Shown one piece after another: positions 14,974 through 53,554 of a stretch of 64,000 nucleotides of DNA (positions are counted from its first letter, which is position 1; every line of letters begins with the position of its first letter). The DNA is taken from sequence record PV660448; one strand, given 5' to 3'. The position numbers and the translations under genes were made by a program. Source of the stretch: Escherichia phage LF82-4. The notes under the pieces were generated by a model. It saw nothing but the letters and a program-made list of their open reading frames with translations. It ran no database searches and had not been told where the DNA came from.

Positions 14974-15208
14974 CCTCGATACATGCTTCAGCCATTTTAA
15001 GAATAGAGCCAGGAGTATCGTTGTCCATTATATTAAAGCTAAATTCAATAGCCCAGTCGGTACAGACATGAACGGCTTTAACTTCATTGCCTTCAACACG
15101 TAATGGCTCAATCCAATACTTGATAGTGTTCTCGAATCCATCATCATCTTTAACGTCTATTTCAACTTCAAGCCCGAGCCCAGCATTGTTAAATTCATCT
15201 AAAGTCAT
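14951..15208 (-). CDS. hypothetical protein (46.2-like)
   Basis: 85 aa between 47 and 46. Confidence 0.55.
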   Translation of the reverse strand: MTLDEFNNAGLGLEVEIDVKDDDGFENTIKYWIEPLRVEGNEVKAVHVCTDWAIEFSFNIMDNDTPGSILKMAEACIEDAYNDED

Positions 15209-16224
15209 TGTGTTGCCTCAATATAAAGTTCGTTAGAATATTTGACCAGCGCTTCTCTGTCTTCGTCTGAGATATCTGGAATCGCGTCAATATATTCTTT
15301 AATGATATCTTGAAGTGATTTAATCTCGATTTCCTGGTCGTCATCAGATTCAACACTGTTATCAACTTTAGAAACCATACGAAGAGAGTGAACTACTTTT
15401 TCAAGTTCAGATTCAAACTTAGTCAACTCTGAATCAATTTCTGATACTATAACACGTACGGCTAGATTAGTATAATCAGAATAATTAATTTTGCCTTTAA
15501 ACGGATAAGTGATTCGTCGATGCCATGTTGTTTCATTAGGAATAAATTCCATACGTTCAACATCAGTGTCAAATACCCAGAATCCACGTGGGTCGTTCTC
15601 GTCACCTGCAGTAAGGGTCCATGGTGTCCCAATATATTTGACGTTAGCAGCTTCAGAGATTGTGTGGAAGTGGCCAGACCAGACTTGTTTATAGGTCTTT
15701 AAGAAATCAGGTTCAAGCCCATGAGACTTCATTCCTTTATAGAAATAAAAGCCGTTCAGTTCCCAATGACCAACACAATACGCAGCAGAAGAAGTCTTGA
15801 TGTGCTCTAAGATTTCACCTGTATTTTCTTCACACATCCATGGAATTAAATCAATCAGACACCCATCGAAATCAACAGTCGTAGGTTTATCATAAATAAC
15901 AACATTTTTACGATGAGACAAAAGCTCTTGGGTTGTATTAGGGTATAAAGTTGTCTTATAAAAAAGGTCGTGGTTACCCAAAATAGTGTTAACGGTTATT
16001 CCAGCGTTTTCAGCCATATCAAATAATTCACGAGTAAACTCCATACAACGTTGTGTTGTGTGAGCTCGTACATCAAATACGTCCCCGTACTGTATCCATG
16101 TTGTTATTCCATTTTTAACAGAATAATCCACCATTTGTTTGAATCCATGACGTTGGATGTTTTGAATCCACTCATCATCCTTTTTTACACCTAAGTGCAA
16201 ATCGCCTACGTTAAGAATTTTCAT
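15205..16224 (-). CDS. 47: recombination nuclease subunit (Mre11/SbcD-like)
   Basis: 339 aa from ATG at 16224 (MKILNVGDLHLG...), AAGGTG RBS; phosphoesterase motifs GDLH, GNHD, GHWH. Confidence 0.93.
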   Translation of the reverse strand: MKILNVGDLHLGVKKDDEWIQNIQRHGFKQMVDYSVKNGITTWIQYGDVFDVRAHTTQRCMEFTRELFDMAENAGITVNTILGNHDLFYKTTLYPNTTQELLSHRKNVVIYDKPTTVDFDGCLIDLIPWMCEENTGEILEHIKTSSAAYCVGHWELNGFYFYKGMKSHGLEPDFLKTYKQVWSGHFHTISEAANVKYIGTPWTLTAGDENDPRGFWVFDTDVERMEFIPNETTWHRRITYPFKGKINYSDYTNLAVRVIVSEIDSELTKFESELEKVVHSLRMVSKVDNSVESDDDQEIEIKSLQDIIKEYIDAIPDISDEDREALVKYSNELYIEATQ

Positions 16225-17038
16225 ATTGCACCTTAAATTTACCATAAATTATACTGTGATAACTTAAATCAGGAAAACCTTCTGCGACGGCTAAAGGTCT
16301 AAACTTCTTAGGACTTATTCTACCACATTTTACCCAAAGAGCATATAGTGCTTCATAATATTCAAATAATGGTCCTTTACGAGCTTCAGAAACAGCTTTA
16401 CGCACTTTGTCCTTTATTGACGGGTCTAAATTTCTAAGGGTTTCACTAATTTTGTTTCGATGGGTTTCATTAATAAGATTTCCTTTAAGCCAGCCTTCGG
16501 GTTCAGTCCCTGGGACAAACATTTTCTTTTCTTTGCCATTATTATACCATTTGCGGCCTTTATTGTGACTAGAGGCTTTATATTCAGGAGAACGACCTTT
16601 TACATTACCTTCAGGTATATAAGGTAGAAAACTTTGTTCTAACGTTTCAGGGTTGTATGAGTGTATATGGCCTTTACCATTATGTGAGCCGTACAATGGG
16701 TGCTCTTCTTTTGGAAGTGATAATCCGAAAAATCCTTTAGGAGCAGCAATTGCTTTATTCATATACATCGGGTTATTGGCAGCATCCACCTTTAGTTGGA
16801 GTAAACGTTCAGCTTTTGTCGCTTCTTCTCTCGTGGCGTGTTCACTTACAATACATGAATCAAAAAGGTGTGGATTCATTTTTAGTTCAGAATTGTAAAT
16901 TTCCTTATATGCTTTTGATAAAACCGTTCCGTGATATCCAGCTTTATGCTTTGCAATACTTGTAGAACCTATATAAAACGGTGGAAGTTTGTCACCATCA
17001 TAAATCGTAAAATATACTATGTACATGTTATTCTCCAT
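16211..17038 (-). CDS. GIY-YIG homing endonuclease (Seg-like), free-standing
   Basis: 275 aa; GIY-YIG variant YIVYF...FYIGST, conserved R/E/N, NUMOD3-like HNKGRKWYNNG repeat; 3' end overlaps gene 47 start by 14 nt; locus where T4 has alpha-gt. Confidence 0.8.
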   Translation of the reverse strand: MENNMYIVYFTIYDGDKLPPFYIGSTSIAKHKAGYHGTVLSKAYKEIYNSELKMNPHLFDSCIVSEHATREEATKAERLLQLKVDAANNPMYMNKAIAAPKGFFGLSLPKEEHPLYGSHNGKGHIHSYNPETLEQSFLPYIPEGNVKGRSPEYKASSHNKGRKWYNNGKEKKMFVPGTEPEGWLKGNLINETHRNKISETLRNLDPSIKDKVRKAVSEARKGPLFEYYEALYALWVKCGRISPKKFRPLAVAEGFPDLSYHSIIYGKFKVQYENS

Positions 17039-49492: not shown

Positions 49493-49720
49493 TTATTTTT
49501 TAATCAAATTGACATAAAACTTGGCATCTTCGGGGTGCATGCCTTCGCAGTATTCTTCAACCATGAACTTCTTAACAGCTTCATAAGGACCACTCAGATT
49601 AAGCTCAGTTGTCCAGAACTTGGAATCTTGTACTGAATCGATACGAACTTCAGGGTGACGGTTGCGAATAACTTCTTCTGTGTATTCATAATCAACGACA
49701 TCAATACTAACTTTAGCCAT
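49493..49720 (-). CDS. hypothetical protein (75 aa)
   Basis: track ORF; GAGGAAAA RBS. Confidence 0.55.
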   Translation of the reverse strand: MAKVSIDVVDYEYTEEVIRNRHPEVRIDSVQDSKFWTTELNLSGPYEAVKKFMVEEYCEGMHPEDAKFYVNLIKK

Positions 49721-49766
49721 TTTGTTTTCCTCTTGATTTGATGTGATTACTATAACATAAACTTAC

Positions 49767-49931
49767 TTAGATGTAAACTATTTCAACATCACCTTTAGCT
49801 GCTTTATAACCTTCGGCCCAAGATACAACAGAGTTTTTATCTGAGGATTCAAATTCAGGCATTGGACTTTCACCAATATTCACACAGTATGTTTCTTCAT
49901 TTTCATCGAACCAAATAATTAAAGTAGTCAT
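49767..49931 (-). CDS. small acidic protein (54 aa), not in ORF track
   Basis: ATG at 49931 with GGAG RBS; fills 280-nt gap. Confidence 0.35.
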   Translation of the reverse strand: MTTLIIWFDENEETYCVNIGESPMPEFESSDKNSVVSWAEGYKAAKGDVEIVYI

Positions 49932-49950
49932 TTTGTTTACTCCACTGTAG

Positions 49951-49990
49951 TTGATAAGTCTATAGTATCACCATCCTTGGTGCTTGTACA
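49951..49990 (-). promoter_or_regulatory. promoter-early stem-loop, family ttgataagtctatagtatca
   Basis: TGTACA -35, CCAAGGATGG spacer motif, TACTAT -10. Confidence 0.45.
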
Positions 49991-49999
49991 TCATTATTT

Positions 50000-50305
50000 T
50001 TAATTTTTCCAACTTAACAACTTGTAGTGTCCTTCATTCGTACGAGGTTTATCCCAATAGATATTAATAAACGATGTCTCACCAATAGAAGTCGGCGGTT
50101 TTTTCTCTACAGTAAGACCTTCGCTTTCTAACCACTCAATGACTTTTGTAGATAAAGCTAAAGAAACATGTAATGGACAACGACAGTATTTTTCACCTTT
50201 AGCTGAAGACTCGTACATCATTTCTAAAATACGTTTTTGCACTTTTTTAAAAATAGTTTCAGCAGATTCTTCAGATTTTTTATTCAGTTCAGTGTAAAGA
50301 CTCAT
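50000..50305 (-). CDS. hypothetical protein (101 aa)
   Basis: track ORF with ATG. Confidence 0.55.
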   Translation of the reverse strand: MSLYTELNKKSEESAETIFKKVQKRILEMMYESSAKGEKYCRCPLHVSLALSTKVIEWLESEGLTVEKKPPTSIGETSFINIYWDKPRTNEGHYKLLSWKN

Positions 50306-50322
50306 AATATTCTCCTCTGCGG

Positions 50323-50362
50323 TTGATAAGTCTATAGTATCATGTCCTTAGAAGAAGTAAAC
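50323..50362 (-). promoter_or_regulatory. promoter-early stem-loop, family ttgataagtctatagtatca
   Basis: GTTTAC -35; 20-bp core identical to 49951-49970. Confidence 0.45.
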
Positions 50363-50392
50363 AACTTTTTAAACTTTTTCTGCCCTAGATAC

Positions 50393-50421
50393 CAAAAAGC
50401 CCCAACCTTTCGGAAGGGGCT
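50393..50421 (-). terminator. intrinsic terminator, copy 3 of 3 identical hairpins
   Basis: same 24-bp hairpin AGCCCCUUCCGAAAGGUUGGGGCU plus U-tract. Confidence 0.55.
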
Positions 50422-50462
50422 AAGCCTTGCGGCAACCTTGTCGGGGTTTCCACCTACTAGGT

Positions 50463-50554
50463 AAGTGTTTGTACGAAACGCCGGGATTCGAACCCGGTTA
50501 TTAAGCAGTTGACGCTACTCAATATTTTTAAAAGGCCATATCTCGACCATATCC
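50463..50554 (-). ncRNA. tRNA-like structured RNA candidate (acceptor stem plus canonical T-arm, non-canonical interior)
   Basis: minus strand 7-bp acceptor pairing CGGAACG/CGUUUCG and T-arm CCGGG-UUCGAAU-CCCGG; no canonical D/anticodon arms found by hand; lies in 330-nt ORF-free gap. Confidence 0.3.
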
Positions 50555-50732
50555 GAACGTTCCGTCAAAAACGCTACTCGGCTTACGGCAAAGATATTTC
50601 CTCGAATCGATAATTCTGTGCGCCGTTTCTGCTGTGATGTAAGGGGATATTAACGAATCATAAAGATTTATTAAGACCAGTCCTTACTCAGGGAACATCA
50701 GTCCGACGACTTACCGGTAGCGACCCGGCTTC

Positions 50733-51077
50733 TTATTTTGGCATATCATCAATTTGCTCTCGACGCCGACGCCATAGATTAATCGCTTCATAAACACATT
50801 CAGCATTTGGTATATGGCGACAATAGTATAGTGATTCGCGTTTCTGGAACCGATGTTGCAATGGGATTTCGTTTAAAAGGTCTTTACGGTCAAAGTATTC
50901 AAAACTAGTTAACCCGGAACGGTTTTTAAGAAACTTCCAATGGCCAAATTCATTTTGGAAATAAACGTAATCAGCGTGTTGATATAATGAATTAATCAAC
51001 CGGTCGGAAATAACTGTATCCTGTTCGTTAAAATAAAACGTTAAATCATGAACTACCAGATAAATATTGCCTTTCAT
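50733..51077 (-). CDS. hypothetical protein (114 aa)
   Basis: ATG start; 8 nt after HEG stop. Confidence 0.55.
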   Translation of the reverse strand: MKGNIYLVVHDLTFYFNEQDTVISDRLINSLYQHADYVYFQNEFGHWKFLKNRSGLTSFEYFDRKDLLNEIPLQHRFQKRESLYYCRHIPNAECVYEAINLWRRRREQIDDMPK

Positions 51078-51084
51078 ATTTTCC

Positions 51085-51753
51085 TCACTTAAATTTTAGT
51101 TTATAGCCTTTAATCCAACCTTCCGGAATAGGATCGGTTTTCTTAATTTTCTTAGATTTCTTTTCTTCTAATGAATGAATCCACATAGTACCAAACTGGG
51201 AATTTTTCTCGCCTTGTTGGTGTTTGTTCCTGGCGTGGGTATCTTTCATTTTAGCAATAGTTTCGGAAGTATGATTTTTATTTAAAAACGACTTAGTGCT
51301 AGAGAATTTTTCTCTGTATTCAGGTAAAGTCCACAGATGCTTTAATTTCTCTGAACCCATTTTACGATATTTTTCTTGAAGCACTTCATCAGAATCAAAT
51401 CTCTCTTTAAAAGCTTTGGCTCCTTTAATAGAGGCTTCTTTCTTTTTATAATTAAATTCGTAAGTATTTAAATGGTCCCAACCACCTTCGCCACCAAGTT
51501 TTAAATTATATACGTCAGAACGATTCAAAAATTCTTCGTTTACGATATTTTTCTCGGCTTCAAACATCTGCTCTTTAGTGTCAAAGAATTCTAAAATTTC
51601 TTTATTAAAATTTTCTATACCATACTTGTCTTGGGCTCTTTTTAATAATTTACCAGAACCCATATATCCATCATCTAAATTTTCGGTAGAATGAGCGCCT
51701 ATATAGATTTTATTATTAATTTTATTTGTTATTTTATAAGTGTAATGGAACAT
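51085..51753 (-). CDS. GIY-YIG homing endonuclease (SegB-like) in tRNA region
   Basis: 222 aa; GIY-YIG YTYKITNKINNKIYIGAH, NUMOD3-like repeats KNHTSETIAKMK and GEKNSQFGTMW. Confidence 0.8.
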   Translation of the reverse strand: MFHYTYKITNKINNKIYIGAHSTENLDDGYMGSGKLLKRAQDKYGIENFNKEILEFFDTKEQMFEAEKNIVNEEFLNRSDVYNLKLGGEGGWDHLNTYEFNYKKKEASIKGAKAFKERFDSDEVLQEKYRKMGSEKLKHLWTLPEYREKFSSTKSFLNKNHTSETIAKMKDTHARNKHQQGEKNSQFGTMWIHSLEEKKSKKIKKTDPIPEGWIKGYKLKFK

Positions 51754-51794
51754 AAATATCTCCTATTTCTAAGAGTATTTATGTTCCCAAAATA

Positions 51795-51866
51795 TGGCCC
51801 TGGCTGGTTTCGATCCAGCTACCTATCAGTTATGAGCTGACAGCTCTCCCATTGAGCTACAGGGCC
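51795..51866 (-). tRNA. tRNA with anticodon CAU (Met or Ile2-type)
   Basis: 72 nt cloverleaf folded by hand: acceptor GGCCCUG/CAGGGCC, D-arm GCUC/GAGC, anticodon stem GUCAG/CUGAU with loop CUCAUAA, T-arm GCUGG/CCAGC; no encoded CCA. Confidence 0.8.
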
Positions 51867-51960
51867 TTAATAACTTTCTATTATGAAAGGCACTTTAGAG
51901 CACCTTTGGTAATAGAGGGTAGATTAATAATAACACATAATTCTTAAAGCAAATTACGTT

Positions 51961-52251
51961 TTACCATACCATATTAATGTAATTATACTCAATACATTCA
52001 AGATTTAAAGGATTCTTGAAAATATCATATTCAAGAGGACCTTTTTCTGTTTCAATAAAGAAATCAAAGTTCACACTATTAAATTTGCGGTCTTCCCAAA
52101 GTAATTTAACCTGTGAAGATGAACGGTCGACGTAAACCTTTTCAACTTCAAAGTGGGTCAAAATACCATAGTAATCGACTAGTGCTTTAGCTGCACGTTG
52201 ATCGCTTTCATATCCATTCTCAACGGATTTTACCTTAGCATAAAGAATCAT
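51961..52251 (-). CDS. hypothetical protein (96 aa)
   Basis: track ORF. Confidence 0.55.
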   Translation of the reverse strand: MILYAKVKSVENGYESDQRAAKALVDYYGILTHFEVEKVYVDRSSSQVKLLWEDRKFNSVNFDFFIETEKGPLEYDIFKNPLNLECIEYNYINMVW

Positions 52252-52610
52252 GAATGTTCCACCACTTCAAAGGTGTGAGCATCAACAATATGATACCAGT
52301 CAAAATTTTCTTCTGCGTTTTTATAAATTTCGCGAAGAGCCTCAACAGTTTTTCCTGTAGCAACAAGGTCGTCAATACCACCAAGAGGATAACAGTCATA
52401 ACCAGCAAACAGAAGGAAATTAATAGTTTCTGTAGGTTCTGGATGCAAAACACCATTATCATCTACCACTTCAAAGAAAGTGTAAGAAGGAGTACAAGTT
52501 TTAATCCAAGCCCATGCTTGAGCTGCTGAATCAAATGGTCTGCGTATCAAACGACAATCAGGGTCTTTAGAAGGATTTGCTTCAAAATCCGCATATACGT
52601 GATATTTCAT
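52248..52610 (-). CDS. hypothetical protein (120 aa)
   Basis: ATG at 52610 with AAGGTGAG RBS; track start is TTG. Confidence 0.55.
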   Translation of the reverse strand: MKYHVYADFEANPSKDPDCRLIRRPFDSAAQAWAWIKTCTPSYTFFEVVDDNGVLHPEPTETINFLLFAGYDCYPLGGIDDLVATGKTVEALREIYKNAEENFDWYHIVDAHTFEVVEHS

Positions 52611-52611
52611 T

Positions 52612-52797
52612 TTACTCACCTTTTGCAATTTTATCCATAACGATAGCGATTAAGCCGATTAGAAATGCTACTACCAATGAGATAGAATTTTCTGTTGTTG
52701 TCAGTAGTCCACAAATGAATCCTACAAACATCGAAAAACTAAAAGCCATTGAAGCAATTACTACAGCAACATTACGAATCAGTTCAGCGCGTTTCAT
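52612..52797 (-). CDS. small membrane protein (61 aa)
   Basis: two hydrophobic helices. Confidence 0.5.
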   Translation of the reverse strand: MKRAELIRNVAVVIASMAFSFSMFVGFICGLLTTTENSISLVVAFLIGLIAIVMDKIAKGE

Positions 52798-52816
52798 TTT
52801 ATTCTCCTCAGTAGTT

Positions 52817-52855
52817 GATAGGGTAATAGTATCACTACCCTATCTAAAAGTAAAC
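52817..52855 (-). promoter_or_regulatory. promoter-early stem-loop (9-bp inverted repeat GATAGGGTA/TACCCTATC)
   Basis: GTTTAC -35 at 52850-52855. Confidence 0.5.
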
Positions 52856-52866
52856 GGTTTTATAAA

Positions 52867-53175
52867 CTATTTTATTCCGCGTGATGCAATCGTATTCTGC
52901 CGTTTAACACCAGTTTGTTTAAAGTCATGACTGTCGATTTGATCGGTGCGAGCAACTCCGAATGATGATTTAATCTTAGCTTTAGATCCTTTAGTTATAG
53001 AAATAAACATCTCGGAAGACCCTTTCTTAAAGTCTGATGCAGATACTTCAACACCGTTCTTAGCAAGTGACCTCAGAATTGCATCCGCGTACTCATCATC
53101 AAGACTCGCTTGAGTATTAATAACAAATGTCTTTGGTGCAGCCGCTTCATTGATAAATTCTTTATAGGTTTTCAT
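52867..53175 (-). CDS. internal head protein (capsid-targeting sequence)
   Basis: N-terminus MKTYKEFINEAAAP. Confidence 0.7.
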   Translation of the reverse strand: MKTYKEFINEAAAPKTFVINTQASLDDEYADAILRSLAKNGVEVSASDFKKGSSEMFISITKGSKAKIKSSFGVARTDQIDSHDFKQTGVKRQNTIASRGIK

Positions 53176-53197
53176 TTTATTTTCCTAATTAATTTTG

Positions 53198-53235
53198 ATA
53201 GGACTACTATAACATAGTCCTATTAGCATGTAAAC
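53198..53235 (-). promoter_or_regulatory. promoter-early stem-loop, family taggactactataacatagtcct
   Basis: GTTTAC -35; inverted repeat ATAGGACT/AGTCCTAT. Confidence 0.5.
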
Positions 53236-53238
53236 TAC

Positions 53239-53526
53239 TTACAGAAGGGTTTTTGCAATAATTTTAAGCTGAGCTACAGAAATATGCTTAGCTTTAAACA
53301 GTGCAGTCTCTTCAGCCGGAGAGATAACAATAGTAGCGCCATCTTTCTTAGCAGACCATCCATCCCCTAAGTAAACAGTACCTTTTACTTCTTCGCCATC
53401 AACCAGACTAATCATTGGTTTACCCTCACGTCCTTTATTTGCTTTAATAACTTCGGAAGTAAGGGTCGCTTCGGTCAGAGTAGAAACGTTAGCATCAGGT
53501 GATATAAATTCTTTATAGGTTTTCAT
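53239..53526 (-). CDS. internal head protein (capsid-targeting sequence)
   Basis: N-terminus MKTYKEFISPDANV. Confidence 0.7.
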   Translation of the reverse strand: MKTYKEFISPDANVSTLTEATLTSEVIKANKGREGKPMISLVDGEEVKGTVYLGDGWSAKKDGATIVISPAEETALFKAKHISVAQLKIIAKTLL

Positions 53527-53554
53527 TTTATTTCCTTGAGGTTGTTTATTTTAT

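Follow-up and report, generated by a model that had tools for sequence, protein, structure and literature searches.

We identify the 222-aa ORF with an ATG start at 51085..51753, on the minus strand of the window (by which we mean the whole 64-kb stretch of DNA that was analysed), as the positional and sequence orthologue of segB of phage T4, because the two share the upstream tRNA(CAU), the 41-nt leader and an identity without gaps. We propose, with a probability of about 80%, that it encodes a functional orthologue of T4 SegB, which homes into segB-less Mosigviruses and replaces tRNA-Arg each time; in this proposal we infer the nuclease activity, the target site and the original loss of tRNA-Arg through cleavage from the enzymes of T4 and T6. 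Judged from sequence, the window is that of a Mosigvirus, an RB69-like T-even coliphage. The closest matches of its tRNA region are phages classed as Mosigvirus, the LF82 phage series is 98.4% identical to it over 20 kb, and the Logan metagenomic contig L012 matches it at 100% over 49493-53175; at the segB locus, none of the records in the phage collection equals the window. Biochemical work has proved T4 SegB to be a site-specific endonuclease, and in T4 x T2L crosses the T4 tRNA region depends on it for an inheritance near 100% (Brok-Volchanskaya et al. 2008, PMC2330249); what the initial annotation said of its biology, namely that segB lies in the T4 tRNA cluster and promotes the inheritance of that cluster, agrees with this work.

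Identity and conservation of the SegB protein

The ORF was first described as a SegB-like GIY-YIG gene lying 41 nt downstream of a tRNA on the same strand, and both parts of this description are borne out. The tRNA-Met with the anticodon CAT, called by ARAGORN and by Rfam (62.4 bits), lies at 51795..51866 on the minus strand like the ORF, and the spacer between them (51754-51794) measures exactly 41 nt. In BLASTP against T4 SegB, taken as the translation of the T4 locus, 169 of 221 residues are identical (76%) over the full length with 0 gaps (E = 2e-128). The Pfam GIY-YIG domain (PF01541) is found at aa 3-73 with 29.0 bits, which exceeds the gathering score of 22.6, and phrog_314, 'homing endonuclease', matches with E = 1e-49. 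The nuclease assignment is further supported by the presence of the two motif tyrosines, the glutamate and the asparagine, and assignment to the SegB group by the full-length colinear similarity and by the site 3' of a tRNA(CAU) with a leader hairpin. A tRNA-Arg directly downstream, which is a site trait of this group, is absent here, and this concerns the insertion site and not the protein; the insertion site of T4 segB has been described as tRNA-Arg/tRNA-Ile (PMC2988022).

Within the protein we distinguish an N-terminal GIY-YIG catalytic domain of about aa 1-95 (51469..51753, minus strand) and a presumed C-terminal DNA-binding region comprising aa 96-222 plus the stop codon (51085..51468, minus strand). 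Residues Y6, Y17, G19, E67 and N83 do not vary in an alignment of 8 SegB homologues with identities as low as 48%, which draws on T4, AV116, G8, BF15, Acinetobacter phage AM101, Klebsiella phage 15882-3 and Vibrio phage Va1. The GIY motif of the ORF reads YTY at Y6, and the YIG motif is Y17-I-G19. The family profile built from the 8 homologues aligns aa 4-84 to I-TevI's catalytic domain (1MK0/1LN0; E = 0.002), and its positions 127-192 match the I-TevI DNA-binding domain (1I3J) weakly (E = 0.043), so that the matches to both domains agree with a proposed two-domain design of SegB. The profile was needed to reach I-TevI, as a single-sequence phmmer search of PDB chains with SegB gave no match. 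In the profile alignment, residues Y6, Y17 and N90 of I-TevI pair with Y6, Y17 and N83 of the ORF, and E67 of the ORF aligns 2 residues ahead of E75 of I-TevI. The catalytic arginine of I-TevI is R27; the stretch bearing it corresponds to a gap in the SegB profile alignment, and to a gap in T4 SegB likewise. As to basic residues, the ORF has an R39, for which two homologues have Lys, and a K38 that does not vary. The gap at the Arg27 stretch is shared by T4 SegB, which is an active enzyme (PMC2330249), and T6 SegB with Y17A/G19A has no catalytic activity (PMC13096335).

I-TevI, the endonuclease of the T4 td intron, thus resembles SegB in its N-terminal GIY-YIG domain, in its extended C-terminal DNA-binding region and in the control of its translation by a leader hairpin. 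It differs in being intron-encoded, whereas SegB is free-standing and is without the Arg27 stretch in the alignment, and the sequence similarity between the two is marginal (E = 0.002 and 0.04). No Pfam match to NUMOD3 was obtained in the ORF at E up to 10; a NUMOD3-like stretch, KNHTSETIAKMK...GEKNSQFG, is visible by eye only.

Comparison with four diverged alleles (Nei-Gojobori) gave dN/dS values of 0.15-0.17 for segB at dS of about 0.8-1.0. The C-terminal half of SegB is more diverged than the N-terminal part, and dN/dS is below 0.2 in both halves (0.13-0.18 in the C-terminal half). These low values indicate that segB is under purifying selection, and thus that it is kept as a protein-coding gene and is no decaying remnant.

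The initial annotation had called segB the second GIY-YIG gene of the window. A Seg-like ORF of 275 aa at 16211..17038, on the minus strand, matches phrog_10820 (4e-75) and phrog_314 (3.7e-19), which makes this count plausible, although the ORF is without Pfam support at 1e-3. Searches of the window for another GIY-YIG gene by phmmer with SegB and by a regular expression for the motif missed this ORF, and it was reached only via the PHROG scan of candidate ORFs.

Leader hairpin, transcription unit and tRNA complement

The leader between tRNA-Met and segB (51754..51794, minus strand) is nearly identical to the leader of T4 segB, where the spacing is also 41 nt; G8, BF15 and AV116 agree with T4 and the window both in having segB behind tRNA(CAU) and in this 41-nt leader. 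It contributes to an RNA hairpin at 51747..51787, on the minus strand, with a minimum free energy of -21.4 kcal/mol (z = -5.9), and none of 200 shuffled sequences folds as well. Both the Shine-Dalgarno sequence (51760-51764, minus strand) and the AUG of segB (51751-51753, minus strand) are base-paired in this hairpin, and 8 leaders of the SegB family have the stem, in which 2 of the pairs are compensatory. Its 5' arm contains a late-promoter-like CATAAATA (51776-51783, minus strand), and the element (T/C)ATAAATA recurs at this place in the SegB leaders of distant phages. Occlusion of the ribosome-binding site by the leader hairpin has been proposed for T4 segB (PMC2330249, PMC2988022).

Upstream of tRNA-Met lies a middle-promoter-like element with a MotA box, TTTGCTTTA-N12-TATTAT (51927..51953, minus strand), which shares homology with the sequence that precedes the tRNA cluster in T4, and the MotA-box pattern has 10 matches in the window against 1.8 expected. 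T4 segB is transcribed from the middle promoter of the tRNA cluster (PMC2330249). By analogy, this element is likely the start of the tRNA-segB-rnaD/C transcript, and the unit likely comprises the promoter, tRNA-Met, segB, ORF150c, rnaD, rnaC and a terminator. Downstream of rnaC, a GC-rich hairpin followed by a U-run (50392..50421, minus strand) likely marks the end of the transcription unit; its fold is weak (z = -1.6) and it is conserved in T4 and ATK47. A generic scan for sigma-70 promoters and terminators performed no better than on shuffled sequence and missed the hairpin after rnaC, and the MotA-box pattern was more informative than the generic promoter scan. The arrangement of middle promoter, tRNA, segB, rnaD, rnaC and terminator is like that around T4 segB, and together with the 76% identity, the position after tRNA(CAU) and the occluding leader of 41 nt it places the T4 gene (PMC2330249) among the closest known counterparts.

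The differences from T4 lie downstream of segB and in the tRNA set. In T4, tRNA-Arg follows 5 nt past the segB stop, whereas in the window an RB69 ORF150c-like gene of 114 aa (phrog_3355; 50733..51077, minus strand) begins 7 nt past the stop, without tRNA-Arg; this neighbour lies outside the mobile cassette and is 99.7% identical to that of the segB-less phage ATK47. SegB of the window is one residue longer than that of T4, with its stop in sequence common to segB-less relatives, and the RNase P cleavage at tRNA-Arg that has been proposed to cut the T4 segB mRNA at its stop codon is impossible in the window. T4 has eight tRNA genes and the window, a Mosigvirus, has one.

That the stretch holds one clear tRNA, as first annotated, is true of the entire 64-kb window, where ARAGORN finds tRNA-Met(CAU) as the sole tRNA. 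The degenerate tRNA-like element that had been noted beside it, at about 50472-50500, is real sequence but belongs to the 3' domain of rnaC (species 1 stable RNA; 50472..50610, minus strand, mapped from the ATK47 annotation). We reject its reading as a decayed tRNA: rnaC is annotated in ATK47 and is strongly conserved, the rnaD/rnaC block being 92-97% identical to T4 and ATK47, and its fold has z = -4.55. An Rfam scan of 49500-53000 (E up to 1) returned tRNA-Met only, rnaC and rnaD being without an Rfam family, and rnaC was named through the ATK47 annotation and the alignment to T4.

The suggestion that endonuclease-driven turnover had reduced the tRNA complement holds for tRNA-Arg only. Comparison of the genomes shows the drop from the eight tRNAs of T4 to two to be a trait of Mosigvirus, which also occurs in segB-less relatives such as ATK47, the LF82 phages and SHSML-52-1. 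Only the further step, from two tRNAs to one, goes with segB on the same comparison, because the cassette sits exactly in the place of tRNA-Arg(UCU) and because phage p000v, which has the same arrangement, carries tRNA-Met only. tRNA-Arg is absent both from the window and from the complete p000v genome; relocation of this tRNA to another site was considered and is rejected for p000v, where the ARAGORN scan of the whole genome gives tRNA-Met only, which means that tRNA-Arg was lost and not moved.

Allele series, junctions and predicted target sites

Four arrangements were found at this locus. Segment for segment, the segB-less Mosigviruses (ATK47 and many others) read tRNA-Met-CCA, ATT, tRNA-Arg(UCU), 18 nt and ORF150c; T4, BF15 and Mosigvirus AV116 read tRNA(CAU), segB, tRNA-Arg and rnaD/C; phage G8, inspected directly, and about seven other phages, assigned by match pattern, read tRNA-Met, segB, tRNA-Arg and ORF150c; and the window, VIPECOMC06, p000v and three metagenomic contigs read tRNA-Met, segB and ORF150c, without tRNA-Arg. 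The absence of segB from ATK47, the LF82 phages, SHSML-52-1 and others lies between near-identical flanks. Relative to ATK47, the segment 51097..51794 of the window (no strand assigned; BLAST break points refined to base-level junctions) substitutes exactly for the 82-bp CCA-ATT-tRNA-Arg(UCU) segment. The tRNA-Met of the window has no encoded CCA, since the segB cassette begins directly after the discriminator base, and at the other end the last segB codon, AAG, and the stop, TGA, fall in sequence common to segB-less relatives. Relative to G8, the window is without 88 bp, consisting of TAATTA, tRNA-Arg and ATTAT; this deletion lies between AAATTT and AAGTGA, its ends share imperfect short homology, and it results in one additional Lys codon for SegB and a TGA stop just ahead of ORF150c.

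The site of T4 SegB comprises 27 bp, with the core GGTTCRANTCC, a degenerate middle and usually CCAR, directly after which cutting is preferred, and all mapped sites are at the 3' ends of tRNA genes (PMC2330249). Aligned in this register, tRNA-Met of ATK47 reads GGATCGAAACC AGCCAGGGTCA CCAA and its tRNA-Arg reads GGTTAGAATCC TTCTGTCTCGA CCAA, so that CCAA stands at positions 23-26 in both. Against GGTTCRANTCC, the core departs at two positions in tRNA-Met (an A at both 3 and 9) and at one in tRNA-Arg. Five bases have been singled out in the preferred tRNA-Asn site of T2L (PMC2330249), and the tRNA-Met site of ATK47 bears four of them (G6, A16, G18 and A26). In T4, G8 and the window, which are the segB+ genomes that were compared, TATT occupies positions 23-26 for the tRNA that lies upstream of segB; the CCAR element of the tRNA-Met site is thus removed, because the cassette begins directly after the discriminator base. 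With cuts predicted by the rules for T4 SegB, from which the SegB studied here differs by 24%, the cassette starts, on its left, 4 nt short of the cut expected in the tRNA-Met site, and the deletion ends, on its right, 4 nt beyond that expected in the tRNA-Arg site (CCAA|). These junctions are consistent with a predicted target that was destroyed by the insertion and with a tRNA-Arg that was lost between two SegB cuts. The core motif is not enriched in the window (6 matches with at most one mismatch against 5.4 expected), and this possibility was rejected; the sole perfect match, GGTTCGAATCC at 50484-50494 on the minus strand, lies in the tRNA-like 3' arm of rnaC.

The distribution of sequence differences around segB points to a recent transfer. 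A stretch of 782 nt, comprising segB, its leader and tRNA-Met, is 100% identical among the window, VIPECOMC06 and p000v; the identical tract extends over 51024..51920 (no strand assigned) in the comparison with VIPECOMC06 and over 51070-51920 in that with p000v, and the flanks of the tracts differ by 5-11%. Outside the tracts, these two phages have 93-95% identity to the window in ORF150c and 89-93% in the tRNA.2-like gene. An identical tract in diverged flanks is also seen in the metagenomic contigs L013 and L014, L013 having one synonymous difference in segB and a tRNA.2-like gene that is 88% identical. Taken together, the cassette and tRNA-Met are 99.85-100% identical in four backgrounds (the window with L012, p000v, VIPECOMC06 with L014, and L013), in which the adjacent genes have 88-98% identity and so differ by 2-12%, and the flanks of the window are themselves 99.7% identical to the segB-less ATK47. 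On these comparisons, the cassette, identical in backgrounds that have diverged, bears the mark of recent lateral spread. This pattern has the form that is classic for a homing element with short co-conversion tracts, and the vehicle may be the general mosaic recombination of T-even phages. SegA and SegC-G of T4 are likewise intergenic GIY-YIG genes whose presence or absence varies in close relatives, and which cut a nearby endonuclease-less allele and have short co-conversion tracts as they spread; what they target is a protein-coding gene or an intergenic region, whereas the SegB motif is common to tRNA genes (PMC2988022).

Proposed homing mechanism and competing explanations

We propose a series of linked steps by which the cassette would spread. 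The middle promoter ahead of tRNA-Met would give a common transcript of this tRNA and segB, and translation of segB would be kept low by the leader hairpin, in which the AUG and the ribosome-binding site are hidden. When a segB-less Mosigvirus infects the same cell, SegB would cut the genome of this rival at the 3' end of its tRNA genes, at sites composed of the TψC-arm core, 11 bases and CCAR. Recombinational repair from the segB+ genome would then copy the cassette, which spans from the discriminator base of tRNA-Met to just ahead of ORF150c without tRNA-Arg, into the cut genome. Each conversion would thus swap the tRNA-Arg(UCU) of the recipient for segB, and would strip CCAR from the tRNA-Met site, so that the product would no longer be a good target. 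In T4 x T2L crosses, homing of segB similarly strips markers of the tRNA region from the recipient (PMC2330249). Several observations weigh against the proposal. The more diverged C-terminal, DNA-binding half may give a specificity different from that of T4 SegB, and the predicted cores carry two mismatches in tRNA-Met and one in tRNA-Arg. The gap opposite the Arg27 stretch of I-TevI also counts here, although T4 SegB is active with the same gap. T-even genomes are mosaic, and the identical tract could stem from general recombination and not from conversion started by the nuclease. Moreover, homing from the sampled donors in which tRNA-Arg follows segB (T4, AV116 and G8) would retain tRNA-Arg, and therefore at least one illegitimate or deletion event must be assumed.

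That event may have occurred without cutting by SegB, an explanation to which we assign somewhat less than even odds. In this explanation, an ordinary deletion or illegitimate recombination removed tRNA-Arg from an ancestor with the order tRNA-Met/segB/tRNA-Arg/ORF150c, and the product spread later by recombination or descent. Such an arrangement exists in G8 and at least seven other phages, and the window corresponds to it minus 88 bp, with imperfect short homology at the ends; AGA codons amount to 4.9 per 1000 in the large ORFs of the window, so that doing without this tRNA may cost little. It has to be set against this that both junctions are 4 nt from predicted SegB cuts, which is suggestive but could be coincidence, since the ends of tRNAs are also natural boundaries of modules, and that T4 SegB cuts tRNA genes of its own genome in vitro (PMC2330249). 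If the cuts were indeed made by SegB, the allele could be read as a natural 'tRNA-erasing' homing cassette, formed when two SegB cuts led to the loss of an 80-bp fragment with tRNA-Arg, and deleting tRNA-Arg(UCU) from the recipient at each homing event; on the junctions and predicted sites, we regard this stronger version as speculative and rather doubtful.

A role of segB that serves mainly the phage, with homing secondary, appears unlikely as the principal explanation. T6 SegB (Chihara et al. 2026, PMC13096335), a member of the same family which conserves Y17 and G19 and adjoins tRNA genes, recognises the cleavage motif RAWTSGAAC in the TψC region and drives segmental amplification of tRNA-Tyr and anti-defence loci, by which the phage escapes defences such as Septu, OLD and ToxIN. 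If segB of the window were kept for breaks of this kind, leading to amplification of tRNA or anti-defence genes, several facts would fit: the segB/tRNA-Tyr locus of T6 is amplified in a nuclease-dependent manner and segB is associated with tRNA genes family-wide (PMC13096335), the SegB-like genes of the Acinetobacter, Klebsiella and Vibrio phages also lie within tRNA arrays, and the allele is under purifying selection. The window, in contrast to T6, shows no duplication, segmental amplification or tandem repeat around segB, where these were looked for; its cassette is linked to tRNA loss, having taken away a tRNA and added no copies, and presence or absence of the gene together with an identical cassette in diverged backgrounds is the pattern of a selfish element. 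The two roles are not mutually exclusive. It is very improbable that segB is inactive or decaying and owes its persistence to hitch-hiking alongside tRNA-Met and the genes for stable RNA, for although homing endonuclease genes often decay after fixation, segB remnants limited to aa 19-113 occur in T-even phages such as RB68 and HY01 and weak translation is expected from the leader hairpin, the frame is of full length and without gaps against the active T4 SegB, the motif residues are intact, dN/dS is about 0.15 over both domains at near-saturated synonymous divergence, and segB is polymorphic among close relatives and not fixed.

The element is of an ordinary, well-understood kind, whose protein and regulation match T4 SegB throughout. 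segB can be named with confidence, where VIPECOMC06 and p000v have the identical gene under the labels 'homing endonuclease' or 'hypothetical protein', and the identification as such has little importance beyond annotation. The alleles with tRNA-Met/tRNA-Arg, tRNA-Met/segB/tRNA-Arg and tRNA-Met/segB form a natural series in which a homing cassette is seen to take the place of a tRNA gene and to spread among RB69-like phages, and they offer a simple system for SegB target choice and for tRNA loss by self-cleavage as against the amplification reported in 2026. If the cassette does erase tRNA-Arg as it homes, a selfish nuclease would be reducing the tRNA set of this phage lineage to one gene, and would so act in the opposite sense to T6 SegB, which drives amplification.

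Candidate SegB targets and codon use around the cassette

The SegB core motif GGTTCRANTCC, the part of the T4 SegB site that lies in the tRNA TψC arm, occurs in perfect form only once in the window, within the stable-RNA gene rnaC (50484-50494), which makes rnaC a possible self-cleavage site of SegB. Two bases in or beside this motif differ in ATK47, a Mosigvirus relative without segB. The rnaD/rnaC block as a whole (50386-50738, minus strand) is 92% identical to T4, compared to about 80% for the neighbouring protein genes. In the tRNA-Met(CAU) gene (51795-51866, minus strand), two mismatches to the core motif stem from the T-loop, which reads AUCGAAA (A54, A60) instead of the usual UUCRANY and resembles the signature of eukaryotic initiator tRNAs. 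The loop is identical in ATK47 and is therefore not specific to segB carriers.

AGA and AGG make up four of the six Arg codons in segB (51085-51753, minus strand) whereas their share of Arg codons across 30 large ORFs in the window is 14%, although these are small numbers. Yet the phage’s tRNA-Arg(UCU) has been displaced by the segB cassette.

Variation in and beside segB

ATK47, two phages with the same segB cassette (VIPECOMC06 and p000v) and the cassette-bearing metagenomic contig L014 share a segment of 508 bp that contains a 171-aa ORF (phrog_2290) and is located between the tRNA promoter and the tRNA.2-like gene. This segment is absent from the window (at 51955-51960), from two further such contigs (L012, L013) and also from T4. 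Within segB itself, codons 124-132 contain a MotA-box middle-promoter pattern, TGCTTCA-N12-TAAAAT (51359-51383, minus strand), which might serve as a separate promoter for ORF150c and rnaD/C or might have arisen by chance; T4 has TACTTCA at the matching position.

Compared with the window, the ORF150c homologue of p000v (L007, about 2501-2846) has one inserted nucleotide, and it lacks a CDS annotation; a frameshifted pseudogene or a sequencing error is the probable explanation. In the Tequatroviruses RB68, HY01, AV122 and TadeuszReichstein, SegB tblastn matches span aa 19-113 only, at about 76% identity, which suggests truncated segB remnants, or C-terminally shortened copies as described for amplified T6 loci.

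A second Seg-like ORF and repeats at small ORFs

A 275-aa Seg-like ORF (16211-17038, minus strand; phrog_10820, 4e-75; phrog_314, 3.7e-19), whose N-terminus reads MYIVYFT...PPFYIGST, has no Pfam match at 1e-3 and overlaps with the gene 47-like ORF (15205-16245) at the start of the latter. The p000v annotation has no ORF of this size adjoining its gp47 gene, and the Seg-like ORF may hence represent another presence/absence homing-endonuclease polymorphism.

A perfect 30-nt direct repeat (53153-53182 and 53504-53533) spans the starts of two adjacent ORFs (52867-53175 and 53239-53526), which share the N-terminus MKTYKEFI. Since the homologue of the former is annotated as an internal head protein in relatives, MKTYKEFI probably corresponds to the sequence that targets T4 internal proteins to the capsid. 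Repeated minus-strand cassettes of about 44 nt (49928-49977, 50300-50349, 52792-52841 and 53170-53213) immediately precede small ORFs and comprise a Shine-Dalgarno sequence and a promoter-like sequence, similar to the repeated regulatory cassettes of T4-type hyperplastic regions, which are thought to mediate gene shuffling.
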